Shown here: positions 9,988 to 46,537 of the stretch, piece after piece
How positions within the stretch are numbered: position 1 is the first letter of the stretch
How the letters are laid out: each line of letters opens with the position of its first letter
DNA from: a virus
Virus genome (UHGV): UHGV-0037395
Length of the DNA stretch: 64,000 nucleotides
Strand: one strand, 5' to 3'
Translations under genes and position numbers: made by a program
The notes under the pieces: model-generated
The model's database searches: none
Told to the model about the DNA's origin: nothing
The model's input: only the letters and a program-made list of their open reading frames with translations

Positions 9988-10377
9988 TTAGTCATTTAAT
10001 CCCGGAACATAGATCCCAACACGGTTTAATTGTTCTTTAGCTTCTTTGAGAATATCTGGAGTGTACTCCCAAATATCATCTTCCACCTGTAAAAGATGGG
10101 GCGAACAACCATCATCAGGCGCACGACATATGGCCAAGCCACGTGGATGGAATATAGAGAAGTTTAGGGCAACAATTAAACCCATAGCGGACAATTCATT
10201 CCAGTCCATCTCCCATTCCCCGGCGTAGCCGGATAGAAAAACACCAATACAGGGATCATCTGTTTGCTGCTCAGGAAAAGTGAAGGAGGCTTGTCTTACC
10301 CCTAACCAACGTTGTAGCAGCTTTTCCGCACGCTTCACCAAACTAGGGTCAATCTGACGCCAATATACTTGTTCCAT
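9988..10377 (-). CDS. Hypothetical protein, paralog A of tandem pair (129 aa)
   Basis: Shares PCIG..W.E.D.MGL..ALN...F.P...and C-terminal (Y/M)(V/I)PGL with the adjacent ORF. Confidence 0.45.
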   Translation of the reverse strand: MEQVYWRQIDPSLVKRAEKLLQRWLGVRQASFTFPEQQTDDPCIGVFLSGYAGEWEMDWNELSAMGLIVALNFSIFHPRGLAICRAPDDGCSPHLLQVEDDIWEYTPDILKEAKEQLNRVGIYVPGLND

Positions 10378-10386
10378 TCTGCCTCC

Positions 10387-10815
10387 TTAAGCAGTTAAAC
10401 CTGGGATCATATACCCGAAACGTCGAAGTTTCTGAATCCCCTCATTTACTTCTTCCGGTGAGTAAGACCAACCATAACGTTCATTAACCTGAAAACCAGG
10501 AGATTCACTAGTTTTATAGTTAACAACAAGGCGATGCTTAGCAGGCATAAACAGCTTATAATTTAACGCAAAAACTAAGCCCATTTCGTCTAACTCTTTC
10601 CAGCCCACAATCTCTTCAAGACCATCCTCTACCTGCACAATTAAACCAATACAGGGCCCCTCATCAATATCATCTTTAAAAGCAAAGGAGATTTCGTTAT
10701 TCTCACACCATATTTTCAAAGAGTTAATAGCCTCATTATACAGGCTAGCTGGGAGAGTACGCCAAAAGTTAACCAAAATTGGGTTAGCTTCTTTAGAGAA
10801 TACATTATTGAACAT
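10387..10815 (-). CDS. Hypothetical protein, paralog B of tandem pair (142 aa)
   Basis: Paralogous to 9988-10377 (same conserved blocks). Confidence 0.45.
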   Translation of the reverse strand: MFNNVFSKEANPILVNFWRTLPASLYNEAINSLKIWCENNEISFAFKDDIDEGPCIGLIVQVEDGLEEIVGWKELDEMGLVFALNYKLFMPAKHRLVVNYKTSESPGFQVNERYGWSYSPEEVNEGIQKLRRFGYMIPGLTA

Positions 10816-10817
10816 AT

Positions 10818-11324
10818 TTACACCTTAAATTGTTGTAAGGATTTACACATTTCAAGATCCGGACTAAATTCTAGCATATAGCTAACAGCTTTTAAATCCT
10901 GAAGATTTATCCCAGTCCTACCGTTGACTATAACCGTTGGATACTGATACATCATAGCACCCGCATCATCAAGCACACACCAATGTTTGAGCTTATGCTT
11001 TTCAACGAAGCGAAGAACAGAATTACCCCTAGATAACCCACCCCCAGTAAAATCCGTTGTACCAAGAAAACGATCGATAAGACCTAATCCGGTCATAATC
11101 TGAACGTTCTCCATCTCATTCCTGACAGAGAACCATGAGGATACTCCAACAATCATTATCGGAGAAGGACGAATAAAGTCCTGAAAAGCCTTGAGAAGCG
11201 GTTTGAAAACCCAGTCACTTCCAAAGAAAATCTTTTCATTATCAGGTGCATGATGGTGGGAGATGCTCGAATTGAGCACCCCATCAATATCTAGAAAAAT
11301 AATTGGAGTATTACTTATTTCCAT
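10818..11324 (-). CDS. HAD-superfamily phosphatase-like protein
   Basis: N-terminal IIFLDIDGVLN (DxDGxx HAD motif I), 168 aa. Confidence 0.5.
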   Translation of the reverse strand: MEISNTPIIFLDIDGVLNSSISHHHAPDNEKIFFGSDWVFKPLLKAFQDFIRPSPIMIVGVSSWFSVRNEMENVQIMTGLGLIDRFLGTTDFTGGGLSRGNSVLRFVEKHKLKHWCVLDDAGAMMYQYPTVIVNGRTGINLQDLKAVSYMLEFSPDLEMCKSLQQFKV

Positions 11325-11520
11325 TTTTGTTCCTTTCTAAGAACGTATCATACTCAACCGTATCAACATATATAACACCATAGTCATCGGATTTATAGTC
11401 CATTTCCCACAGCTCACAGCGATAGCACCAACTACCATCTGCCCATACAAATATATCATCGGGATGTGTATAAACAGATTTAACTATGGACATATCTGTT
11501 TCCCTTGCTTCTCGACACAT
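11311..11520 (-). CDS. Hypothetical small Cys-containing protein (69 aa)
   Basis: ORF overlapping neighbours on the same strand. Confidence 0.3.
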   Translation of the reverse strand: MCREARETDMSIVKSVYTHPDDIFVWADGSWCYRCELWEMDYKSDDYGVIYVDTVEYDTFLERNKNGNK

Positions 11521-12316
11521 AAGGTCTACCCTCTAAATGAGCTTCTACACGAGCAATAAAATCATGGTCACTAAAAGCATCTACCGCACCTTTACTCCAG
11601 TAAGGGATACCGCGTTCTTCCAACTGGTACATCTCACTACGAGTCATACCTTGATAGCCCGGTTCTGCTGCGAGGGCACTATCATAGTAGTTAACAACCA
11701 TAAGTTTCGCAGCAGTCAAATTAAGAACAGGAAATAATTCCCAGTAGAAGTTAATTACTTGGTTAGAGCAACCAACCACAATGATCATATCTTGACTGGT
11801 AATACCATCAAAAACATTATACATTTCTGCGTATGCAGGAGCATGTTCTCCAAAGAAGATTACATTAGGTTTAACCCATTTATAATCATCTGGATCAATA
11901 GAATTATACCCTACATCAATAATCCGTTTGTTGCTACTATTGTAGCTATCAGCTACAACAACCTCTTTTAAATATCCGTGAATGTGCAGAATGTCACTAT
12001 GTGGAACGCCAGCACGCTCAATAAGGTCATCAACGTTGGTAGTCAAGTTTACTACTTGACCTGGATATTGTTTATACCATTCACCAATACGCAAATGTGC
12101 AAGATTGGGTTCAACAGTTTTTAGCTCTTCACGACGTTTGTTGTAAAACATATGGGTTTTATGGTAAAAATTACCACGAAAGGCATGAATATTACATACT
12201 TCTTCTAGATCATAATCATCCCACAATGCTTTACCACTAGCAGTATCAGTACGAAAAGCTCGTACACCACTTTCAACACTCAAACCCGCACCACTAATAA
12301 TAATTACCCTACGCAT
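11480..12316 (-). CDS. Sir2 (sirtuin) family NAD-dependent protein
   Basis: Sirtuin motifs GAGLSVESGVRAFR, TTNVDDLIERAG, HIHGYL and KPNVIFFGE. Confidence 0.65.
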   Translation of the reverse strand: MRRVIIISGAGLSVESGVRAFRTDTASGKALWDDYDLEEVCNIHAFRGNFYHKTHMFYNKRREELKTVEPNLAHLRIGEWYKQYPGQVVNLTTNVDDLIERAGVPHSDILHIHGYLKEVVVADSYNSSNKRIIDVGYNSIDPDDYKWVKPNVIFFGEHAPAYAEMYNVFDGITSQDMIIVVGCSNQVINFYWELFPVLNLTAAKLMVVNYYDSALAAEPGYQGMTRSEMYQLEERGIPYWSKGAVDAFSDHDFIARVEAHLEGRPYVSRSKGNRYVHS

Positions 12317-22001: not shown

Positions 22002-22265
22002 ATGGGACTCTTTAGAAAGAAAATTTATTTAACAGAAAGGCAAGAACACAAACTTCTTACTCTATCAGAATACTATCATTTACCTTATGACTACTTTGTA
22101 GATAGAGCAATAGAGGAATTCTTGGATAGGGAATTAGAGGTTATAAAACCTAAGCCTCCTGAGCCGTCTTTAGCATCAAATGGTCCACAAAGAGAGTACC
22201 CAAGAGTTCCACCAATGCCTCCTACTCCGCCAAAAACTAGAGTTGTAACAGAAGGTGAAAAATAA
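22002..22265 (+). CDS. Hypothetical protein with Pro-rich C-terminus (87 aa)
   Basis: ORF after promoter 21947-21975; overlaps RNase H start. Confidence 0.4.
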   Translation: MGLFRKKIYLTERQEHKLLTLSEYYHLPYDYFVDRAIEEFLDRELEVIKPKPPEPSLASNGPQREYPRVPPMPPTPPKTRVVTEGEK

Positions 22266-22761: not shown

Positions 22762-22790
22762 TTGCTTAAAGCCCTCTAATTTAGTATAAT
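22762..22790 (+). promoter_or_regulatory. T5-type early promoter
   Basis: TTGCTT-17-TATAAT. Confidence 0.55.
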
Positions 22791-22817: not shown

Positions 22818-23102
22818 ATGCGTATTTATAACTCAAATTCACTAGGATTTAAACCATTGAGAAAACGTGCACAATCACCTCGTCAAATAAGAAAGGCTAA
22901 TATTGGTGAGCCAGAAACACGTCTTCCACCCCCTCCAGAACAACGTTTAGTTTATCTGGACGAAGAATTAGCTGAACGCGAAAGAAAAGCTCAAGAAGAG
23001 ATTGAGCGTAAGAAAATGTGTACTGCTCCGGCCTACTCCAAAGGGGCTTATCAGTATATCTATACAGCCGAGGAGGCTAAAGATGTGGGGCGTAAAAAAT
23101 GA
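22818..23102 (+). CDS. Hypothetical protein (94 aa)
   Basis: ORF after promoter 22762-22790 and RBS GAGGAGG. Confidence 0.4.
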   Translation: MRIYNSNSLGFKPLRKRAQSPRQIRKANIGEPETRLPPPPEQRLVYLDEELAERERKAQEEIERKKMCTAPAYSKGAYQYIYTAEEAKDVGRKK

Positions 23103-23548
23103 AGATTACCGAATTTAAAGGTACTTATAGTTTCTTATCTAACTTTTATTTATCACCAATTACTTTCGAATATCTAAACGAGATATGGCATGCTGATACT
23201 GTAGAACATGCTTTTCAGGCTATGAAATCCGACCAAAAAGATGATGTAGCTCATGTACTGCGCTCCCTAAATGCAGGAGTTGCCAAACGTAGAGGACGTA
23301 AATTAACTCTACGCTCTGACTGGGATAAGGTAAAAGATGATGTAATGCTAGAGCTTTTACGGTTAAAGTTTGCAATCCCTGATTTGAGAGACAAACTGTT
23401 AGCAACAAAAAATGCAACTTTGATCGAAGGAAATACCTGGGGAGATACATATTGGGGTGTTTGCCGAGGCATCGGGGACAATACTTTAGGTGTTCTTTTG
23501 ATGCAGGTAAGGTCTGAAATTAAAAGAAGCTTACAGTTAATAAATTAA
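23099..23548 (+). CDS. NADAR (YbiA/DUF1768) domain protein, putative N-glycosidase or ADP-ribose-removing enzyme
   Basis: YSFLSNFYLSPITFEYLNEIWHADTVEHAFQAMKS and W/G-rich C-terminal segment typical of the NADAR family. Confidence 0.7.
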   Translation: MKITEFKGTYSFLSNFYLSPITFEYLNEIWHADTVEHAFQAMKSDQKDDVAHVLRSLNAGVAKRRGRKLTLRSDWDKVKDDVMLELLRLKFAIPDLRDKLLATKNATLIEGNTWGDTYWGVCRGIGDNTLGVLLMQVRSEIKRSLQLIN

Positions 23549-23556
23549 AAATTCAT

Positions 23557-23585
23557 TTGCTAAACGCTTCAAATTCTCGTATAAT
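23557..23585 (+). promoter_or_regulatory. T5-type early promoter
   Basis: AAAAATTCATTTGCTA...TATAAT...CATAAATTGATAAAC cassette. Confidence 0.6.
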
Positions 23586-23623: not shown

Positions 23624-24139
23624 ATGGCTAAGCAGAAAAACGCAAAAACTCAAGCAGCTCCGGCAGTTAAAACTTTCCCAAAGACTGAGGCTAATCGCAA
23701 AGCTCGTCTGGAACGTCACCTGCGTAAGCATCCTACCGATGCTCAGGCTGCACAAGCACTGAATAACCCGGCTCCGATTCGTCAGAAGCCTAAAGCTAAA
23801 AATGCCACCCGTAAATCCTACAAAATGGTTATGTATGTAGAAAATTACGGCCACAAATCTGTCCCAGTTTCCCTGAGCTTCAACGCTGGGGCTGAATTGT
23901 TCCCTCGTAATGGTATGTCTATGAAAGACTATGAGAAGGCAGTTAACCAGAAGCGTAAACCAACAGCAGATGTATTGCGCGATACTCGTGGACAGTTTGG
24001 TTCTGTTAAGCCAAATATCTTTGGCGTAGAGTATAGTAAAGATAATGTTCGTGCTCTGTGTTACGGCGTAGGCATTAAGTTCACGGGTGATTCCGCTCGT
24101 AAATCTGCTAAACCAGCTCGCAAACGTAAAGCGAAGTAA
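23624..24139 (+). CDS. Basic Lys/Arg-rich protein (171 aa), possibly nucleic-acid binding
   Basis: ORF after promoter 23557-23585; highly basic N- and C-termini. Confidence 0.45.
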   Translation: MAKQKNAKTQAAPAVKTFPKTEANRKARLERHLRKHPTDAQAAQALNNPAPIRQKPKAKNATRKSYKMVMYVENYGHKSVPVSLSFNAGAELFPRNGMSMKDYEKAVNQKRKPTADVLRDTRGQFGSVKPNIFGVEYSKDNVRALCYGVGIKFTGDSARKSAKPARKRKAK

Positions 24140-29102: not shown

Positions 29103-29177
29103 CGGGGTGTAGTCTAAGGGAGAGGCAGGAGTCTTCTAAATTCCTTTATGCAGGTTCGAATCCTGTCACCTCGGCCA
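29103..29177 (+). tRNA. tRNA-Arg(TCT): tRNA-Arg (anticodon TCT)
   Basis: Acceptor CGGGGTG/CACCTCG, T arm GCAGG-TTCGAAT-CCTGT, anticodon loop CTTCTAA, encoded CCA. Confidence 0.6.
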
Positions 29178-29211
29178 ATTTTATTAACTGTAACTAAAAC
29201 AAAGGAAATAT

Positions 29212-30159
29212 ATGTTTAATACTAAAAATATGAAAGAACTGACTTCTGAGCAGAAAGTAATTCGTACTATTAAACGTTGGGGGATTGGTGCTGTAGTTGG
29301 TTTAGCAGGTTTAATCCTAGCTTTTAATTCATATACTATTGTTTCTGATGGTACGGTTAAAACTCAAACATTCCTGGGTAAAGTAGACCCTAATCCAGTA
29401 TTGCCCGGTTTCCATCTTGTAAACCCATTTGCATCTTTCGATACTTTTAGTACAAAAGATATTGCTGTAAAATTAGATAAACTTCAGGTTCCTAGTCAGG
29501 ATAAGTTTAAATCCACTGTTGACCTGACCGTTATGTTGCAGTTTGATGGTTCTAAGGCACCAATTAACCGTATTAATGCAGGTACTCAGGATCAAGCGTT
29601 AGACAAATATGTAACTGAAAAATTACTGTCTACTATTCGTGAGTTTGGTAAGTCTGTACCTAAAGCACAAGATTTGTTTGATGCTAAAATTCAGGCTCAA
29701 TTGCAAACTGCAATTCAACAGGAAGTTGAAGAGTATGCACGCCCATATGGTTACACAGTTAAGCAGGTGTTCCTTCAGGATATTACTTTGCCACCAGTAA
29801 TCATGGAACAGGTACAGAATACCAAAGTTCGTGAAGAGCAAGTTAACGCTGCAAAAGCTGAATTAGCTCGTGTTGAACAGGAAGCACAGCAAAAAGTTAA
29901 ACAAGCAGAAGCAGATCGTGAAGCTCGCAACAACCAAGCTATTGCTAACGAACGTGACGCAGATGCTAAGCTGTATGCAGCTAAGAAAGAAGCTGAAGCT
30001 AACGCCGCACTGCAACGTACCATTACTCCTGAGATGATTCGCTGGAAGCAACTGGAAGTTGAAATGATTCGTGCTCAGAAGTATCAAGGTGGTGTACCGC
30101 AGACTGTGGTTGGCACTGGCTATGATGGCCAAATGATTATGGATATGCGTAACAAGTAA
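29212..30159 (+). CDS. SPFH/band-7 (prohibitin/HflC-like) membrane protein
   Basis: N-terminal TM helix, SPFH core, Ala/Glu-rich coiled coil; terminator downstream. Confidence 0.65.
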   Translation: MFNTKNMKELTSEQKVIRTIKRWGIGAVVGLAGLILAFNSYTIVSDGTVKTQTFLGKVDPNPVLPGFHLVNPFASFDTFSTKDIAVKLDKLQVPSQDKFKSTVDLTVMLQFDGSKAPINRINAGTQDQALDKYVTEKLLSTIREFGKSVPKAQDLFDAKIQAQLQTAIQQEVEEYARPYGYTVKQVFLQDITLPPVIMEQVQNTKVREEQVNAAKAELARVEQEAQQKVKQAEADREARNNQAIANERDADAKLYAAKKEAEANAALQRTITPEMIRWKQLEVEMIRAQKYQGGVPQTVVGTGYDGQMIMDMRNK

Positions 30160-30182
30160 TAGTTACACGTAATCTTCGAACC

Positions 30183-30222
30183 AAGCCCGCGTTTTCTCCG
30201 AGAGCGCGGGCTTTTCTGTATT
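30183..30222 (+). terminator. Rho-independent terminator after SPFH gene
   Basis: AAGCCCGCG...CGCGGGCTT plus TTCTGTATTT. Confidence 0.6.
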
Positions 30223-30230
30223 TAAGGAAA

Positions 30231-30272
30231 AAGAAAAAGCCCCTGCCGAAAGGTAAGGGGCTTTTGTTTTTG
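30231..30272. terminator. Bidirectional terminator between convergent units
   Basis: A-run, GCCCCT-...-AGGGGC hairpin, T-run. Confidence 0.6.
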
Positions 30273-30478
30273 GTTTAGAACCATATACTCTTGTTACAGC
30301 AACCACCCATACGGGAGGCCAATCTTGACTGAAAATCTACTCTAGGGGGCAGGATAAGAGTAGGCTTAAAGGCAAACGGATTGAACGCCGGTATTTGCGT
30401 AAACATTGCTGGAGAGCAACAACGTGCTACAGGCATTGGGCAGCACGAAACAGATTTTCTGCAACACATAATTCCTCC

Positions 30479-30895
30479 TTAGGAGTTATTACCACTATTT
30501 TGAGCTTTTGCAATTTGGCTTTGGCAGAAGCTATTAAACTTACCCATAAGTGATACGAGCTGTTTCCCATCCTCTGTCTTTGCGAAGTCTTCGAAAAGGG
30601 CTAGTACTGCCTGTCCTTCCGCAGAAACCTGCGGTTGTTGGGTTTGTTGCTGAACTTGCTGCTGCGGCATCTGTTGCTGCATTTGTTGAGGCATTTGCGA
30701 CTGCCCGCTTATTTGCTGCATCATTTGCATAGGACTCACACTTCCAGGGTTTTGCTGGAGTTGTTGCTGCATCTGTTGCGCTTCTGCTAAACGCTGTTGC
30801 AACTGTTGTAAGTAGGGGTTATCCAGACCCGGAATGGGCTGCTGGGAGCCCATACTTTGATTAAGTCCGTTATTTACAAAACCATATTTACTCAT
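30479..30895 (-). CDS. Gln-rich hypothetical protein (138 aa)
   Basis: Minus-strand ORF with RBS AAGGGGAGGAG, second gene of a convergent two-gene unit. Confidence 0.45.
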   Translation of the reverse strand: MSKYGFVNNGLNQSMGSQQPIPGLDNPYLQQLQQRLAEAQQMQQQLQQNPGSVSPMQMMQQISGQSQMPQQMQQQMPQQQVQQQTQQPQVSAEGQAVLALFEDFAKTEDGKQLVSLMGKFNSFCQSQIAKAQNSGNNS

Positions 30896-30916
30896 AATGG
30901 GCTCCTCCCCTTAATA

Positions 30917-31910
30917 TTAAGCCGGCAGTTTAGCCTGCAGACCAGCCAGAGTCTGAGTGATAGCACCAAGACTTAAAGCGATTTGATTAATTACCTGACC
31001 GTTAGCACCGCTACCCGCAGCGATTGCTTCACGTAGGCGACATGCATCTAACTCATCCTGGATACGCGCAGTAGTTACACCAGCGATCGCAGTCTGAAGT
31101 TCACAGCAACATTCAGCGATCTGACGTTCCAGAGAGTTCTGGTTAGCACACATCTGAGCCTGAACAGCGGCAAACTGGTTATTAGTTTGTAAAGTCTGCT
31201 GGAAAGCGATCTGTGCAGAATCAAACTTATCTTGTGCACGAGCTATCTGGTTAGCTGCGAAAGATTGATCAATCTGGCGAGAAAGATCGAACTGACCCTG
31301 AATAACGTTGCGGGTTTCCTGGCAGATCTGATTAGACAGATTAGCACCTGTACCATAGATCGTAGTTAGTACAGACTGAGTATCACGACTCTGGTTTTGG
31401 GATGTCTGGCTAAAACCATTGTTAACTGCGCTTAAAACAGCTCCAGTACCCTGGTTAGCTTCTGTACGGGTAGTGTTGATAGCTGCTAGAATACTAGCGG
31501 TATCTTGGTTCTGAAGTACTGCATCAACTGCGGTACCTTCACCAACTACACCACGTCCACCGAATCCACCGAAACCACCGAATCCGCCTGTTAATAGAGC
31601 ACCGATTAGGATAGCTCCGAATAGCCCCATACCTTCACCACCGAAAGCACCTACGTTTGCTGGGTAACCACCTAGTAGGCCAGGGAAGCCATTAGTAAAT
31701 ACGTTTACTGGTTCTTGCATTTTATGTTTTCCATATTTATGACAATGTTCATCATCGTCATCTTCATCGTCTTCATCATCGTGTTCACGATGTTTTTCTT
31801 CGTAGGCTCTGACCTTCTCCCACTTTTTCTTATCTGATTCCTCGTGACGGTGCAGTTCTGCCGCAACGCTAGAGACGGTCTCAGGACTCTTAGCTACTTC
31901 TTCTGTCATT
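30917..31910 (-). CDS. Membrane protein with acidic/His-rich N-terminus, TM helix, GFGG repeats and Q/N/T-rich C-terminal half (~330 aa)
   Basis: Start ATG at 31910 after RBS AGGAGG (ORF track starts earlier); sigma70-like promoter (TTGACA-17-TAAAGT) upstream on the minus strand. Confidence 0.45.
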
Positions 31911-31989
31911 TTTTGACACCTCCTAGTATATAGAAAATATGTGTCTCTTTGATCACTCATCCATAACATATACTTTACACTACCCCAGC

Positions 31990-32018
31990 GAAAATGTCAA
32001 GTGGTCTTTAAAAATTGC
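31990..32018 (-). promoter_or_regulatory. Sigma70-like promoter (TTGACA-17-TAAAGT) for minus-strand operon 31910-30479
   Basis: Approximate coordinates; host-type hexamers without cassette flanks. Confidence 0.35.
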
Positions 32019-32116
32019 CCCCGGATTTTTAGTGGGGTCACAAATTTTGGTCCTCACCACTTATCTGCTACCCTTAAGCGCCCTATGATTTTCCTCTAAA
32101 AAGTTAAAAAATTTGA

Positions 32117-32145
32117 TTGCTTGAATGCTAAATTCTCTGTATAAT
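32117..32145 (+). promoter_or_regulatory. T5-type early promoter for Toprim gene
   Basis: TTGCTT-17-TATAAT plus CTATAAATTTGAGAGAGG. Confidence 0.55.
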
Positions 32146-32175
32146 ATATCTATAAATTTGAGAGAGGAACCAAAT

Positions 32176-32694
32176 ATGAATGTTGATGAGCTAACACAGC
32201 ACCTCTTATCTAGGGGATTTGATGTAGATAAATATCATTGCTGGTTAAGTCCAGAAGGGTGGCTAACAGTCCCGTTGTATGACTTCTCTGGGATGTTGAG
32301 AGGCTATCAGACTTATAATCCTTCTGCTCCAAAAGGGCATGGTAAGTGCCCCTTTGAAGCTAAATATTTTACCTATTCTACTACACAGTGTGTATGGGGA
32401 CTAGAAACTCTCAATGGAGATGAAAAAGTAGTATTGATTGCTGAATCTGTATTTAAGGCAGTTGCGTTACATAACGCTGGTTATCCAGCCCTGGCAATGC
32501 TGGGTTCTTCTCCAGGAAAAGCCTTATTAAAGCAACTGAAATTATTACCTTTTAAATTGGTAGCTGTCGGGGACAACGATCCTGCGGGTGAAAAATTTGC
32601 TAGAAAATTAAATGGATTTGTTTCTCCTGTAGATGTGGATGAGATGTCTACCGAAAACTTGAAAAATTTTCTTGCTATGAAGCTAAATTTCTAA
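32176..32694 (+). CDS. Toprim-domain (DnaG-primase-like) protein
   Basis: Toprim Glu (VVLIAESVF) and DxD (VGDNDPAGE) motifs; ATG 32176 after RBS GAGAGAGG. Confidence 0.55.
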   Translation: MNVDELTQHLLSRGFDVDKYHCWLSPEGWLTVPLYDFSGMLRGYQTYNPSAPKGHGKCPFEAKYFTYSTTQCVWGLETLNGDEKVVLIAESVFKAVALHNAGYPALAMLGSSPGKALLKQLKLLPFKLVAVGDNDPAGEKFARKLNGFVSPVDVDEMSTENLKNFLAMKLNF

Positions 32695-32700
32695 TATAAT
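32672..32700 (+). promoter_or_regulatory. T5-type early promoter overlapping 3' end of Toprim CDS, driving tRNA-Ser/Met
   Basis: TTGCTA-17-TATAAT. Confidence 0.5.
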
Positions 32701-32715
32701 ATATCTTATAAATTC

Positions 32716-32804
32716 GGAAGAATAGCATAACGGTATTGCAGCAGATTGCTAATCTGTCGGTTTGAAATATAGCCTTGTGGGTTCGATTCCCACTTCTTCC
32801 GCCA
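32716..32804 (+). tRNA. tRNA-Ser(GCT): tRNA-Ser (anticodon GCT), long variable arm
   Basis: Acceptor GGAAGAA/TTCTTCC, T arm GTGGG-TTCGATT-CCCAC, loop TTGCTAA, 89 nt. Confidence 0.65.
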
Positions 32805-32810
32805 GATTTT

Positions 32811-32888
32811 GGTTCTCAAGCTCATATGGTATGAGCACCCGGCTCATAACCGGAAGGTACGTAGGTTCGAATCCTCGGGGAGCCACCA
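32811..32888 (+). tRNA. tRNA-Met(CAT): tRNA-Met/Ile2 (anticodon CAT)
   Basis: Acceptor GGTTCTC/GGGAGCC via G-U pairs, D stem GCTC/GAGC, loop CTCATAA; T stem imperfect. Confidence 0.5.
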
Positions 32889-32908
32889 ACTTAATTAGGG
32901 GATTACAA

Positions 32909-33097
32909 GTGGATCTATATATAGTTTATGTTGTGTTTATCCAAGATAGAGAATACCCGGATGAATATAAAAAAGGATATAGATTAGCCAGAGCTACCTC
33001 TGAAGCCCAAGCTATGGATAAAGTGGCAGATTATATGATTACGGTAGAAAACGTACACTATATCGACTACCTTGAAGCCTCAAAAGTAATTGACTAA
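32909..33097 (+). CDS. Hypothetical small protein (62 aa, GTG start)
   Basis: ORF following tRNA at 32888; AGGGGA RBS 6 nt before GTG; start uncertain. Confidence 0.25.
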   Translation: MDLYIVYVVFIQDREYPDEYKKGYRLARATSEAQAMDKVADYMITVENVHYIDYLEASKVID

Positions 33098-33106
33098 GGA
33101 GACTAT

Positions 33107-33292
33107 ATGTCTAAGTTTCAAGAACTCAAGCAAGAGCTAGAAGAATGTGCCTGCCCTGGGTGTAGGGGGATCGGTGAAAGTTCTGATGCAGAAGCAGGAG
33201 ATACTTTTTGCAATATCTGGGTTTGCCCAAATTGCAAGGGTACAGGTATTAATCCTAGCTGTGCTATTTCTCTAGATATTGAAAGAGGATAA
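33107..33292 (+). CDS. DnaJ-type zinc-finger mini-protein (61 aa)
   Basis: Two CxxCxGxG repeats (CPGCRGIG, CPNCKGTG). Confidence 0.45.
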   Translation: MSKFQELKQELEECACPGCRGIGESSDAEAGDTFCNIWVCPNCKGTGINPSCAISLDIERG

Positions 33293-33297
33293 TACCT

Positions 33298-33387
33298 GTG
33301 AAACTAAAAGATTATTATATTGGTTGGTTTGTGGGACTAGTAGTAGGATTTTCACTAGGCTATAATATGTATCAACTAATAAACTGA
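33298..33387 (+). CDS. Possible 29-aa hydrophobic peptide (GTG start)
   Basis: Short ORF between gene stop and tRNA; single TM-like stretch. Confidence 0.2.
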   Translation: MKLKDYYIGWFVGLVVGFSLGYNMYQLIN

Positions 33388-33393
33388 TTACAT

Positions 33394-33470
33394 GGGGGTG
33401 TAATCGAATTGGCATAGGTACTGGACTTAAAATTCAGGTTTTGTGGGTTCGAATCCCACCACCCCTACCA
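33394..33470 (+). tRNA. tRNA-Leu(TAA)?: tRNA with anticodon TAA (Leu-type) but short variable arm
   Basis: Acceptor GGGGGTG/CACCCCT, T arm GTGGG-TTCGAAT-CCCAC, anticodon arm CTGGA-CTTAAAA-TTCAG, discriminator A, CCA. Confidence 0.5.
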
Positions 33471-33485
33471 ACTTAAGGAAATAAG

Positions 33486-33650
33486 ATGTATAGACATCCA
33501 CCTCCGCCAACACGTCGTTCTAGGGAAGTCATCCTTATGGAATTGACTAAAAACTTCAAGGCAACTCTTGAAGATAGAGATCTAGGCACGGATGAAGACA
33601 TTGATTTTATTTGTAGACTATTAAAGATGAAACTGGAGAAACAACATGGC
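33486..33650 (+). CDS. Hypothetical small protein (54 aa)
   Basis: ATG with RBS AAGGAAATAAG just after tRNA 33394-33470; overlaps next start. Confidence 0.3.
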
Positions 33651-33852
33651 TAATCCTGAAATTACCGCACAACGTTTCATGCTTAAAGGCATGATTGCTG
33701 AGGCAGGTATGACTCAAGAGGTTGCAGACTTTCATAAGCAATTTCTTGATATTATAACTCTAGCTAAAGAGACAGGAGAAAGAGAACACGGAGCAGCAAT
33801 TATGGCTATATCTCTTATTAGCCTAGACTTAGCTGAAGAATCTGGAGTTTAG
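33646..33852 (+). CDS. Hypothetical protein (68 aa)
   Basis: ORF coupled to the upstream small ORF. Confidence 0.4.
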   Translation: MANPEITAQRFMLKGMIAEAGMTQEVADFHKQFLDIITLAKETGEREHGAAIMAISLISLDLAEESGV

Positions 33853-33882
33853 CTCCTCCAAACAGAATTTTTAAAAATGTAC

Positions 33883-33912
33883 TTGCCTTTTGCTTTAAAT
33901 TTCTGGTATAAT
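33883..33912 (+). promoter_or_regulatory. T5-type early promoter (18-bp spacer)
   Basis: TTGCCT-18-TATAAT plus TATAAATTGATGAAGGAG. Confidence 0.5.
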
Positions 33913-33942
33913 AGTTATATAAATTGATGAAGGAGTTAACGA

Positions 33943-34218
33943 ATGCAAAATCGTGTTATAGCAACTGGTATTGAAAGTGCAATCTGTAAATCCTGGGAAG
34001 GCTGGGAAGGTGAGATTGAATGGCTTTATTTCTACGATGTAGAACTTCTGCCGGAAGTTAAAGCTAAATGTGTTGAAGCTGGCATGGCTCCAGATGCAAA
34101 AGCTGATATTGATATTTCAATGTCTGAACTTAAAGGTCGTGTAATTACTGTTAGTGATGAGGGCGAAGAAGTTTTCGAACTTCCATTCTCCTTAACTGTC
34201 GCTCCTAAGTTCGACTAA
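33943..34218 (+). CDS. Hypothetical acidic protein (91 aa)
   Basis: ORF after promoter 33883-33912 and RBS GAAGGAG. Confidence 0.4.
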   Translation: MQNRVIATGIESAICKSWEGWEGEIEWLYFYDVELLPEVKAKCVEAGMAPDAKADIDISMSELKGRVITVSDEGEEVFELPFSLTVAPKFD

Positions 34219-34254
34219 CTAATACAGCACTGAGCAAGTTCTTTAAAATTTGAC

Positions 34255-34283
34255 TTGCTCAGTGCCATAAAACTTGATATAAT
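34255..34283 (+). promoter_or_regulatory. T5-type early promoter driving tRNA-Tyr/Glu cluster; -35 lies within an 8-bp hairpin stem
   Basis: TTGACTTGCTC...17...TATAAT; hairpin TGAGCAAG/CTTGCTCA spans 34231-34266. Confidence 0.5.
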
Positions 34284-34346
34284 AGTTATCTAATTTGGAA
34301 ACATATCTAAAAGTGTTTAAACTAGTATTTGAATACTTTTAAATAT

Positions 34347-34437
34347 GTTGGATTAGTATCGTAGAGGTAGCGAAGCAGACTGTAAATCTGCCGACTCGGA
34401 AGGGTCTCGGGTGGTTCGACTCCATCATCCAACACCA
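34347..34437 (+). tRNA. tRNA-Tyr(GTA): tRNA-Tyr (anticodon GTA), long variable arm
   Basis: Acceptor GTTGGAT/ATCCAAC perfect, anticodon arm GCAGA-CTGTAAA-TCTGC, T arm GGTGG-TTCGACT-CCATC, CCA. Confidence 0.7.
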
Positions 34438-34444
34438 AATTTAA

Positions 34445-34521
34445 GTCCTGTTAGACAAACTGGTAAAGTCACTACCCTTTCAAGGTAGGATTTGCGGGTT
34501 CGATCCCCGCACAGGACGCCA
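34445..34521 (+). tRNA. tRNA-Glu(TTC): tRNA-Glu (anticodon TTC)
   Basis: Acceptor GTCCTGT/ACAGGAC perfect, anticodon arm CTACC-CTTTCAA-GGTAG, T arm GCGGG-TTCGATC-CCCGC, CCA. Confidence 0.75.
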
Positions 34522-34530
34522 ATTTCTGCA

Positions 34531-34606
34531 TTCCTAGAGTGTTACTGGACAGCATGTCGGTCTCCAAAACCGTACGGTCTAGGTTCGAGTCCTAGTAGGT
34601 TTGCCA
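34531..34606 (+). tRNA. tRNA-like element with CCA (Trp) anticodon loop, poor acceptor pairing (possible pseudo-tRNA)
   Basis: T arm CTAGG-TTCGAGT-CCTAG, loop CTCCAAA, 3' GCCA; acceptor stem not reconstructible. Confidence 0.3.
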
Positions 34607-34612
34607 AAATTT

Positions 34613-34687
34613 GCACCTTTAGCTGAGATGGATTAGCGCTTGCCTGAAGAGCTTGAGAGGTTCGTTCGATACGAACAGGGTGCACCA
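34613..34687 (+). tRNA. tRNA-like element (anticodon stem unresolved)
   Basis: Acceptor GCACCTT/AGGGTGC with one G-U, T arm GTTCG-TTCGATA-CGAAC, D stem GCTG/TAGC, CCA; no canonical anticodon arm found. Confidence 0.35.
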
Positions 34688-34704
34688 AATTGAGGGAGCT
34701 GCTG

Positions 34705-34977
34705 ATGCATCCTGAAAACTTCTTTATTTACTGCGCGGATAAGTCGCTGAAACGTAGAATTAACAAAGTCTATCATTATCGTGCTAGTCAACAGCCTTAT
34801 GTATACGCTTTTGACGGTGATCACATCCCATTAGAACAACTATCTTGTGATTACATGATATTGAAGAACTTTGACGAGACAAAGATCTCAAGCGTTCATA
34901 ATCGACAGAATCCCTTAACGTGGAAATATAAGAAGAAAAAGAAAGGCATCAAATTCTTAAAAAATGTAGTTGCTTAG
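34705..34977 (+). CDS. Hypothetical protein (90 aa)
   Basis: ATG at 34705 after GAGGGAG; lies directly after a tRNA-like element. Confidence 0.35.
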   Translation: MHPENFFIYCADKSLKRRINKVYHYRASQQPYVYAFDGDHIPLEQLSCDYMILKNFDETKISSVHNRQNPLTWKYKKKKKGIKFLKNVVA

Positions 34978-34998
34978 TTTCCAAAAGTTCTGTATAAT
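34970..34998 (+). promoter_or_regulatory. T5-type early promoter overlapping 3' end of CDS 34705-34977
   Basis: TTGCTT-17-TATAAT plus CATAAATTGAACTGGAG. Confidence 0.5.
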
Positions 34999-35026
34999 AA
35001 TTACATAAATTGAACTGGAGAAGCAA

Positions 35027-35218
35027 ATGAAACGATTAGTTAGATTTAAGTGTTGTGGTTCTGAACATATTTTCACACATCTTCGTGAATTTAAAATGTG
35101 TGATTGTGGTAAATCAGGCTATGACTCAGGAGATGGGTTCTACATCCGTACTCTAGGGAACTTCAATGATCTAGAATTTGAAGATCTCGAAAAACAATAT
35201 AAACCGACCGTTGGCTGA
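35027..35218 (+). CDS. Cys-rich Zn-ribbon-like mini-protein (63 aa)
   Basis: CCGSEH...CDCGKSG; 3' end overlaps tRNA-Cys by ~14 nt. Confidence 0.35.
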   Translation: MKRLVRFKCCGSEHIFTHLREFKMCDCGKSGYDSGDGFYIRTLGNFNDLEFEDLEKQYKPTVG

Positions 35219-35279
35219 ATGGCTTAGGCGAAGGATTGCAAATCCTTTTTATGTGAGTTCAAATCTCATGCGGTCGTCC
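35205..35279 (+). tRNA. tRNA-Cys(GCA): tRNA-Cys (anticodon GCA)
   Basis: Acceptor CGACCGT/GCGGTCG, anticodon arm AAGGA-TTGCAAA-TCCTT, T arm GTGAG-TTCAAAT-CTCAT, CCA; 5' end overlaps CDS 35027-35218. Confidence 0.6.
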
Positions 35280-35282
35280 AAT

Positions 35283-35423
35283 TTGCTGAAAGAATTGTTA
35301 AATCAATTCAGGCACGCGTAGGAACACTGTCTCCGTAATTGAAAGATGAGGCACGGTTTGGAGAGGTATGCCGCTACACGCTACGGTGCTAACTCCGTCT
35401 AGGTGAAAATCCTAGTCAGCAAT
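35283..35423 (+). ncRNA. 141-nt structured element with tRNA-like acceptor (TTGCTGA/TCAGCAA) and T-arm-like hairpin CTAGG-TGAAAAT-CCTAG
   Basis: Perfect 7-bp terminal complementarity; no ORF; lies between tRNA-Cys and tRNA 35433. Confidence 0.25.
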
Positions 35424-35432
35424 ACAAATTCA

Positions 35433-35515
35433 GGGTCGTTAGCCAAGCGGTTTGGCGGTGGACTGTTAATCCATGTCGAAAGACAACGTAGGTTCGAATC
35501 CTACACGGCCCGCCA
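35433..35515 (+). tRNA. tRNA-Asn(GTT)?: tRNA with anticodon GTT (Asn-type) and 13-nt variable arm
   Basis: Acceptor GGGTCGT/ACGGCCC, D stem GCCA/TGGC, anticodon arm GTGGA-CTGTTAA-TCCAT, variable GTCGAAAGACAAC, T arm GTAGG-TTCGAAT-CCTAC, CCA. Confidence 0.5.
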
Positions 35516-35617
35516 AATTCTGTGTAGAGTTAAGTAAACCGGTAGCCAACCAGCTATCATTGCTGACATCGAATTCAGCCACAGATACCATTTTCATTAA
35601 TAACTGAGGAAACAAGC

Positions 35618-35803
35618 ATGTCCAAGAATGTAATTGCGCAGCTAGAAGTTCATCGTGATAGCACTCTCAACAATATTGAAGTTGAGAAGAAATACATCGA
35701 AGAACTTAAACATGATATACTAGTAAGTCTCAATCGTCTTAATGTACGAAAAGAGTTTCTTAAAGAACTTAATGCAGCTATTGAAAAACTCAAAGCTGAA
35801 TAA
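35618..35803 (+). CDS. Hypothetical coiled-coil protein (61 aa)
   Basis: ORF with RBS GAGGAAA between tRNAs. Confidence 0.35.
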   Translation: MSKNVIAQLEVHRDSTLNNIEVEKKYIEELKHDILVSLNRLNVRKEFLKELNAAIEKLKAE

Positions 35804-35812
35804 ATGAATTAT

Positions 35813-35889
35813 GCGACCGGGGCTGGCTTGGTAATGGTACTCCCCTGTCACGGGAGGGAATGTGGGTTCAAATCCCATCGGTCGCGCCA
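35813..35889 (+). tRNA. tRNA-Asp(GTC): tRNA-Asp (anticodon GTC)
   Basis: Acceptor GCGACCG/CGGTCGC perfect, anticodon arm CTCCC-CTGTCAC-GGGAG, T arm GTGGG-TTCAAAT-CCCAT, CCA. Confidence 0.65.
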
Positions 35890-35965
35890 ATTTTTGCAGG
35901 ACGCTGGTATAGATAACCACCGCGTGGGAAGTATCTATATTTAGAGCACTGCAAAGCATAATAAT

Positions 35966-36041
35966 ACATCCATAGCTCAATGGTTAGAGCTACCGCCTCT
36001 TAAGCGGAGGGTTCTAGGTTCAAGTCCTAGTGGGTGTACCA
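35966..36041 (+). tRNA. tRNA-Lys(CTT): tRNA-Lys (anticodon CTT)
   Basis: Acceptor ACATCCA/TGGGTGT, D stem GCTC/GAGC, loop CTCTTAA, T arm CTAGG-TTCAAGT-CCTAG, CCA. Confidence 0.65.
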
Positions 36042-36226
36042 AATTTAAAGAGTAAAGGCTACAGTAGGTGCACCCTTACGGACTGCTACACCGGACTCTT
36101 TAAACAAAATTTCAGTGCAGAACACGGAGCTAGCAATTCGGAAGTGCTGACTCATGATAAGCTGCCTATGTACTTGCAAAGCGGTCGTGTCCAAGACTCG
36201 GACTCTTGCACTGAAAACAATCAAAC

Positions 36227-45785: not shown

Positions 45786-46537
45786 TGTCAGTATTAGTCG
45801 GTTTACATGGTGAAGCTGGTTCGGGAAAAGATACCGTTGCAAAATTAATTATCGATTGGTGTAATGACACGTATCCAACGTGCTTATCTCGTCGTTATAG
45901 TTTTGCTAAGCCCGTTTATGAACTTGCATCCGTAATCCTCGGTGTAACTCCAGAGTTTCTAGGAGAGCGCAGGGGAAAAGAGATTGACCAATGGTTTACG
46001 GTCACACAATCTCAGTTGGAGCGAGCCAGGGATGTATGGTTTAAGTACGGTATCGATAAGTTCGAAGACTTCTCGTACGTTTGGCCTATTTTTGAGGAAA
46101 AATATCTTAATCCTCAACAACTTATATCAGAGAATAAAGAAGACGGTCTTTATAGCTTATTTATTTCTCCGAGAAAAATGTTACAGCTCGTAGGAACAGA
46201 GCTAGGAAGGCAGCTGGTGCATGAACGCATTTGGCTCATAATTCTGGAGCAATCCATCGCTAAAGACGACCCAGATGTCGCCGTAATAACAGATGTTAGA
46301 TTCCCCAATGAAGGAGAGCTACTCAGAGAAACAAACCATTTAGATATGGATTCTTTGATAGTAAATGTAGTACCAGCTGAGCAGAAGTTCACTATTAAAT
46401 CAGATCATCCATCTGAAAGTGGTATTCCTGCAAAATATATTACTCACGAATTAGTTAATAAATTCGATGGTATCAATAACCTTAAACTAGAAGTTTATAA
46501 CTTCTGTGACTTAGAGCTAGAACCACTAGTTGGATAA
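45785..46537 (+). CDS. dnk: Deoxynucleoside monophosphate kinase
   Basis: P-loop GLHGEAGSGKDT, 250 aa, consistent with the T5 dNMP kinase. Confidence 0.6.
   Translation: MSVLVGLHGEAGSGKDTVAKLIIDWCNDTYPTCLSRRYSFAKPVYELASVILGVTPEFLGERRGKEIDQWFTVTQSQLERARDVWFKYGIDKFEDFSYVWPIFEEKYLNPQQLISENKEDGLYSLFISPRKMLQLVGTELGRQLVHERIWLIILEQSIAKDDPDVAVITDVRFPNEGELLRETNHLDMDSLIVNVVPAEQKFTIKSDHPSESGIPAKYITHELVNKFDGINNLKLEVYNFCDLELEPLVG

Follow-up and report, generated by a model that had tools for sequence, protein, structure and literature searches.

A NADAR gene in the early region of a T5-like phage

What lies at this locus? The window (the whole stretch of 64,000 nucleotides that we analyzed, from UHGV virus genome UHGV-0037395) carries an open reading frame (ORF) for a 149-residue protein, running on the plus strand from ATG to TAA precisely where the original prediction had placed it. 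This ORF and the features around and within it are:

22762..22790, plus strand: promoter-like TTGCTT-17 nt-TATAAT; the identical stretch occurs in T5 and Bas32; below the threshold of a consensus scan
22818..23102, plus strand: ORF of 94 residues, homolog of T5.090; no Pfam match; last ~20 codons unlike T5
23099..23548, plus strand: stand-alone NADAR-domain coding sequence, ortholog of AdfN^Bas32 (bas32_0066), by ORF, Pfam match, sequence identity, and AlphaFold2 fold
23204..23227, plus strand: EHxFQAxK motif, from codon E36 (23204-23206) to codon K43 (23225-23227); equivalent to E43/K50 of PnNADAR (the Phytophthora nicotianae NADAR) and E36/K43 of T4 AdfN
23426..23455, plus strand: codons E110 (23426-23428), D116 (23444-23446), and W119 (23453-23455), all invariant; D116/W119 correspond to PnNADAR D130/W133
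23557..23585, plus strand: promoter-like TTGCTA-17 nt-TATAAT; 10/12 match to consensus; homologous to the T5 early promoter P-H207

When 3.5 kb and 24 kb of sequence around the gene were searched by megablast, T5-like phages infecting Escherichia, Salmonella, and Shigella matched in the hundreds, at 94-98% identity. The order of the genes—nrdB, DHFR, thymidylate synthase, RNase H, a small ORF, NADAR, a DUF7022 protein, and an exonuclease-like protein—is that of the T5 early region. Downstream, 23 tRNA genes are clustered on the plus strand at 29103-40695; such a cluster is typical of T5-like phages. Because of the megablast matches, the T5-like gene order, and the 23 tRNA genes, we assign the window to Tequintavirus (Demerecviridae, Markadamsvirinae). 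The phage is a different Tequintavirus isolate from Bas32 and is closest to Salmonella and Shigella phages. That the gene lies in the early region, as had been proposed from the sequence, is borne out by its position among homologs of the T5 early genes nrdB, frd, thy, and rnh.

The TGA stop of the T5.090-like ORF overlaps the ATG of the NADAR gene (ATGA), an arrangement that suggests co-transcription and translational coupling of the two. In T5, a promoter is annotated upstream of T5.090 at 46337-46411. Its counterpart in the window is the site at 22762..22790, which is likely the early promoter of the T5.090-like/NADAR pair. A second T5 promoter, P-H207 (45985-46059), is conserved in sequence at 23557..23585; this site starts 9 nt past the NADAR stop and delimits the insertion, as compared with T5, on its right side. 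From this arrangement, early expression of the NADAR gene is likely. Directly 3' of the NADAR gene lies the DUF7022 protein gene (23624-24139, plus strand), whose product matches over its full length (E = 1e-76) and is the T5.089 homolog.

Domain, fold, and active site

Does the ORF encode a NADAR protein? The product matches Pfam PF08719 (DUF1768) with 79 bits against a gathering cut-off of 35.1 (E = 6.3e-22), over protein residues 9-142 and profile positions 9-163 of 163, so the domain named in the original prediction is indeed present. The signature on which that prediction was based is there as well, as F12-L13-S14-N15-F16 and E36-H37-A38-F39-Q40-A41-M42-K43, and it stands far above chance. 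The product is a bare core NADAR that lacks an N-terminal extension. Among the PHROGs, it matches phrog_1017 (PHROG 1017, function unknown; E = 8e-45). Sequence matches in the PDB are confined to two solved NADARs, E. coli YbiA (2b3w, E = 3e-15) and PnNADAR (8bau, E = 7e-7), with which it shares 36% and 26% identity, respectively.

An AlphaFold2 model, built on the homolog alignment of 42 sequences, reached a mean pLDDT of 97.5 and a pTM of 0.91. Foldseek comparison of this model with the PDB confirmed the YbiA fold, with core helices flanked by small sheets: YbiA 2b3w is the closest fold (TM 0.81, probability 1.00), followed by the ligand-bound PnNADAR-ADPr complex 8bau (TM 0.78, probability 1.00). 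The Geobacter NADAR 8bat—a DarT1-linked antitoxin—is a poor match (TM 0.44, E = 0.46).

The homolog search returned more than 1,000 relatives, the nearest beyond the T5-like cluster being ~50-60% identical; the one homolog outside this cluster whose context was looked up lies on phage-like contigs. The 42 aligned homologs share 46-59% identity with the window protein, and 25 alignment columns do not vary; E36, K43, E110, D116, and W119 are among them. A phmmer alignment to 8bau equates these five residues with PnNADAR E43, K50, E125, D130, and W133 (the 8bau chain numbering is offset by 2); thus, all five catalytic or ADP-ribose-contacting residues of the solved NADARs are kept. In the PnNADAR co-crystal with ADP-ribose, E43, E125, D130, and W133 touch the ligand or sit at the catalytic center (PMC11543638). 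K43 of T4 AdfN is described from the PnNADAR structure as interacting with ADP-ribose, and E36 and K43 are the residues that were mutated in T4 AdfN (PMC11825919); the equivalence between PnNADAR K50 and T4 AdfN K43 is drawn from spacing. E110 is the last-strand glutamate, a mark of NADARs that are neither DarG1 nor T4-type, and it aligns with the glutamate of YbiA and PnNADAR. A glutamate on the last beta-strand is the YbiA-family marker of de Souza and Aravind (PMC11125620, PMC11543638), but it is common to YbiA and non-YbiA NADARs and is insufficient alone for a YbiA assignment.

A near-identical ortholog with a published anti-DarT1 phenotype

How does the protein relate to NADARs of known function? 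Aligned with bas32_0066 (QXV80247.1) of Escherichia phage IrisVonRoten, it is identical at 147 of 149 positions, with equal length and no gaps. The two substitutions, T9 (A in Bas32) and K104 (E in Bas32), both fall at variable alignment positions. IrisVonRoten, whose locus tags read bas32_, is the BASEL phage Bas32, and its bas32_0066 locus matches that of the window, with the same flanking genes: both NADAR genes lie between homologs of T5.090 and T5.089, and the ATGA overlap and the promoter that follows are common to both. Of the published bas32_0066 cloning primers, the reverse fits the end of the window gene exactly and the forward fits with two mismatches.

The Bas32 protein was named AdfN^Bas32 in Nat Commun 2025;16:1598 (PMC11825919) and is called NADAR^Bas32 in the preprint (PMC11257639). 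According to PMC11825919, AdfN^Bas32 neutralizes DarT1 toxicity in E. coli when no phage is present, and its expression from a plasmid brings RB69, T5, and Bas25 back to full titer on a DarTG1 host. On a host with the thymidine-modifying DarTG2, the same paper reports, T5 plating is unaffected by AdfN^Bas32. The original prediction held that the NADAR protein counters DarT by undoing the ADP-ribosylation of guanine; this stands for DarTG1, through the 99%-identical AdfN^Bas32, and does not extend to DarTG in general. An anti-DarTG1 NADAR of this kind is already in the literature, the window gene being a near-identical ortholog of a characterized anti-defense protein.

The evidence for AdfN^Bas32 in the available part of PMC11825919 consists of ectopic, induced expression, and neither a purified-protein assay nor a catalytic mutant was found there. 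Our literature search likewise found no deletion of the NADAR gene in Bas32 or another T5-like phage and no later study of a T5-like AdfN in its native phage. That AdfN^Bas32 disarms DarTG1 by removing ADP-ribose from DNA is the most likely account.

An accessory cassette in T5-like genomes

How widespread is the gene among T5-like phages? It occurs in 96 phage records at a nucleotide identity of at least 96%, and megablast finds the upstream flank in 434 records and the downstream flank (the DUF7022 gene) in 227. In T5, no NADAR gene is present at the syntenic site between T5.090 and T5.089, a gap of 83 bp. A NADAR-clade profile run against the six-frame translation of the T5 genome found nothing (best E = 1.7 versus 5e-66 in the window), although a very divergent type of NADAR could escape such a search. 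The NADAR gene is therefore an accessory insertion of ~450 bp in T5-like phages. T5 is among the DarTG1-sensitive phages rescued by AdfN^Bas32 in PMC11825919. Since T5 lacks the gene, is sensitive to DarTG1, and is rescued when AdfN^Bas32 is supplied in trans, genotype and phenotype agree.

In the T5.090 homolog, the final ~20 codons (23040-23102) set the window and Bas32, both NADAR carriers, apart from T5 and Salmonella phage vB_SenS_UTK0009, while the remainder of the ORF is nearly identical. Because only this 3' end differs, the left boundary of the cassette seems to fall within the T5.090-like ORF. UTK0009, an Epseptimavirus, has a NADAR gene of its own (2489-2938 of its locus) whose product is 60% identical to that of the window. 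Its slot is between rnh and the T5.090 homolog, whereas the window copy follows the T5.090 homolog; the T5.090-like protein beside it is 89% identical to that of the window. These observations suggest at least two independent NADAR acquisitions in one neighborhood of Markadamsvirinae genomes.

Relation to DarG1, T4-type, and YbiA NADARs

Which of the known NADAR systems does the protein resemble? With DarG1 (e.g., of E. coli C7 and of Geobacter lovleyi, 8bat) it shares the superfamily and, by inference, the hydrolysis of guanine-N2-linked ADP-ribose. DarG1 proteins, however, have an N-terminal extension, a catalytic Asp in place of Glu, and an adjacent darT1, whereas the window protein has no extension and carries E110. 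We rejected membership in the DarG1 (BC4488) family: E110 is not Asp, the protein starts at the core domain, its TM score to 8bat is 0.44, and a Pfam scan of eight neighboring ORFs found no DarT-like or other ADP-ribosyltransferase domain. The neighbors are RNase H, the T5.090-like ORF, and the DUF7022 protein, and the gene is phage-encoded and stand-alone. Membership in a defense system was also rejected: PADLOC matched the candidate PDC-M42C, though weakly (E = 6e-7), and did not match DarG, and the NCBIfam NADAR anti-phage model DS32_2 stayed below its cut-off of 240 with a score of 45 bits.

AdfN^T4 (T4 gp30.3), the founding phage anti-DarT factor, is likewise stand-alone, free of an N-terminal extension, and equipped with the E36/K43 pair, and like AdfN^Bas32 it counters DarTG1 and not DarTG2. 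The two types differ at the last-strand catalytic position, where T4-type NADARs have His and the window protein has Glu (E110); membership in the T4-type AdfN (gp30.3) family was rejected on this residue. They also differ in their requirements, in that T4-type NADARs need the context of a T-even infection for full activity. In uninfected cells, DarT1 toxicity is rescued by AdfN^Bas32 but not by T4-type NADARs. In PMC11825919, BLASTP and PSI-BLAST searches started from AdfN^T4 missed the Bas32 protein.

The likeness to YbiA (2b3w) and PnNADAR (8bau) is closer: each is a bare core with the last-strand glutamate and the ADP-ribose-contacting residues kept. Indeed, by both sequence and structure the window protein is nearer to the housekeeping-type YbiA than to the DarT1-linked antitoxin, which is a caveat to its reading as an anti-DarT1 factor. 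YbiA is encoded on the chromosome, as a housekeeping gene or in an SOS operon, and does not relieve DarT1 toxicity in vivo, unlike AdfN^Bas32. E. coli YbiA hydrolyzes G-ADPr in vitro and yet fails to rescue cells from DarT1 (PMC11125620). Because YbiA is active in vitro and fails in cells, fold and residues alone would not predict activity in vivo.

Might the protein instead be a metabolic N-glycosidase of the YbiA type (COG3236/TIGR02464), which destroys reactive intermediates of the riboflavin pathway and has no role in defense? TIGR02464 is its best NCBIfam model (E = 3e-18), YbiA is its best PDB relative, and the names that the gene bears in many GenBank records of T5-like phages ('GTP cyclohydrolase II', 'N-glycosidase', 'swarming motility protein YbiA') point the same way; other records read 'DUF1768 protein' or 'hypothetical protein'. 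The TIGR02464 score of 66.8 bits nevertheless falls below the trusted cut-off of 73.7, so that the domain search does not place the protein in the riboflavin-glycosidase subfamily, the outcome that the original prediction had named as contrary to its claim. No riboflavin-pathway domain was found in the Pfam-scanned flanking ORFs (RNase H, DUF7022, and ORFs with no match), to which the record annotations near the gene add DHFR and thymidylate synthase. The gene is accessory, missing from T5, and lies in the early region of a lytic phage rather than in a chromosomal housekeeping context, and the 99%-identical AdfN^Bas32 has a demonstrated anti-DarT1 phenotype (PMC11825919). With the sub-threshold score, the context, the accessory status, and the published phenotype all against it, we consider riboflavin N-glycosidase activity as the sole function extremely improbable. 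The original prediction had also set riboflavin glycosidase and ADP-ribose activity against each other as an either/or, which is a false dichotomy, given that E. coli YbiA itself acts on guanosine-ADPr in vitro (PMC11125620).

A proposed mechanism and its alternatives

What does the protein do during infection? We conclude that 23099..23548 very probably encodes an anti-defense enzyme of the AdfN type, a stand-alone NADAR ADP-ribosylglycohydrolase made early by a T5-like phage. In the proposed sequence of events, a DarTG1 host would release DarT1, which would ADP-ribosylate guanine in the phage DNA and thereby block replication. The NADAR protein would bind the ADP-ribose moiety through W119, D116, and K43, and E36 and E110 would hydrolyze the N-glycosidic bond between ribose C1'' and guanine N2; normal DNA would be restored, and replication of the phage could proceed. 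In effect the protein would be an orphan antitoxin that repairs the damage and does not bind the toxin. The hydrolytic chemistry is established for other NADARs (PMC11125620, PMC11543638, PMC11833690), and for the window protein we infer it from residue conservation and the published rescue in vivo. The gene would presumably benefit this phage in nature.

Alternatively, the protein may bind ADP-ribose as a noncatalytic inhibitor of an NAD+-consuming defense. Another phage NADAR (ref. 37 of PMC11825919; Carabias et al. 2024, on Retron-Eco1) is said in that paper to act without enzymatic activity, and the ADP-ribose-binding residues of the window protein are intact. The catalytic glutamates E36 and E110 are strictly conserved, however, which favors catalysis, and we consider a purely binding role very unlikely. 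The inhibitor from the Retron-Eco1 study was not found mentioned by name in the literature searched.

Is DarT1 damage the only substrate? The protein may be a broader eraser for which it is one substrate among several, acting also or mainly on cytidine-ADPr or on guanosine-ADPr in RNA left by other ADP-ribosyltransferases or defenses. Its glutamate-type active site (E110) is that of the NADAR/YbiA families and not the DarG1 Asp or the T4 AdfN His, and in vitro, C-ADPr on DNA and RNA was removed by members of the NADAR/YbiA families but not by DarG1s or the T4 NADAR (PMC12945103). G-ADPr was removed from RNA by all NADARs tested (PMC11833690). That AdfN^Bas32 acts on unrelated phages and needs no phage factors suggests a low specificity for context. 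On the other side, the literature searched contained no assay of a T5-like NADAR on cytidine or RNA substrates and documented no natural defense of E. coli or Salmonella that ADP-ribosylates cytidine. We regard a broader substrate range as possible, though on balance unlikely; it would add to the DarTG1 explanation and would not exclude a DarTG1 role.

The wider proposal that T5-like AdfN is either a broad-spectrum eraser (of cytidine-ADPr and RNA G-ADPr) or a neutralizer of NADase defenses of the Retron-Eco1 type through ADP-ribose binding appears doubtful. If it were true, the phage would be protected against more than DarTG1, and the two 60%-identical NADAR alleles, which occupy neighboring slots in different Markadamsvirinae, would be the outcome of selection exerted by several ADP-ribosylating systems of the hosts.

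Annotation and host range

Read as an AdfN-type anti-DarTG1 enzyme, the gene was correctly recognized as an enzymatic phage counter-defense, an orphan antitoxin that would repair ADP-ribosylated DNA. The biology was already covered by the 2025 paper; the residual value of the gene lies in better annotation and a possible host-range marker. The many records that now read 'GTP cyclohydrolase II', 'swarming motility protein YbiA', or 'hypothetical protein' should be relabeled 'anti-DarT factor AdfN (NADAR)'. The presence or absence of the ~450-bp cassette is a plausible marker of the ability of T5-like phages to grow on Escherichia and Salmonella with DarTG1, of use in phage therapy and host-range work. 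In the closest GenBank record, that of Salmonella phage WP85, the gene already bears the label 'antitoxin-like enzyme, NADAR superfamily'. Among the GenBank records of the gene this label is found in WP85 alone, and the labels as a whole are stale relative to the 2025 literature.

Other genes of the early region

An ORF of 87 residues at 22002-22265 (plus strand), proline-rich at its C-terminus, separates thymidylate synthase from RNase H and abuts the start of rnh. WP85 annotates it as hypothetical, it has no Pfam match, and at the corresponding place T5 has only a 133-bp gap. This ORF may represent one more small accessory gene of the early region.

The early region also holds a second NAD-linked gene, for a Sir2-family protein (PF02146, E = 8e-25) at 11480-12316 on the minus strand, which by position and length is probably the homolog of T5.102. 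T5 has this gene too, so it is not linked to the presence of NADAR. Adjoining it are the genes for a HAD_SAK_2 protein (the 'Swiss Army Knife' RNA-repair HAD domain) and for two paralogous DUF7415 proteins:

10818-11324, minus strand: HAD_SAK_2 protein
10387-10815, minus strand: DUF7415 protein
9988-10377, minus strand: DUF7415 protein

The probable T5 counterpart of the HAD_SAK_2 gene, judged by position and length, is labeled 'Sir2' in GenBank, a label with which the Pfam match in the window disagrees.
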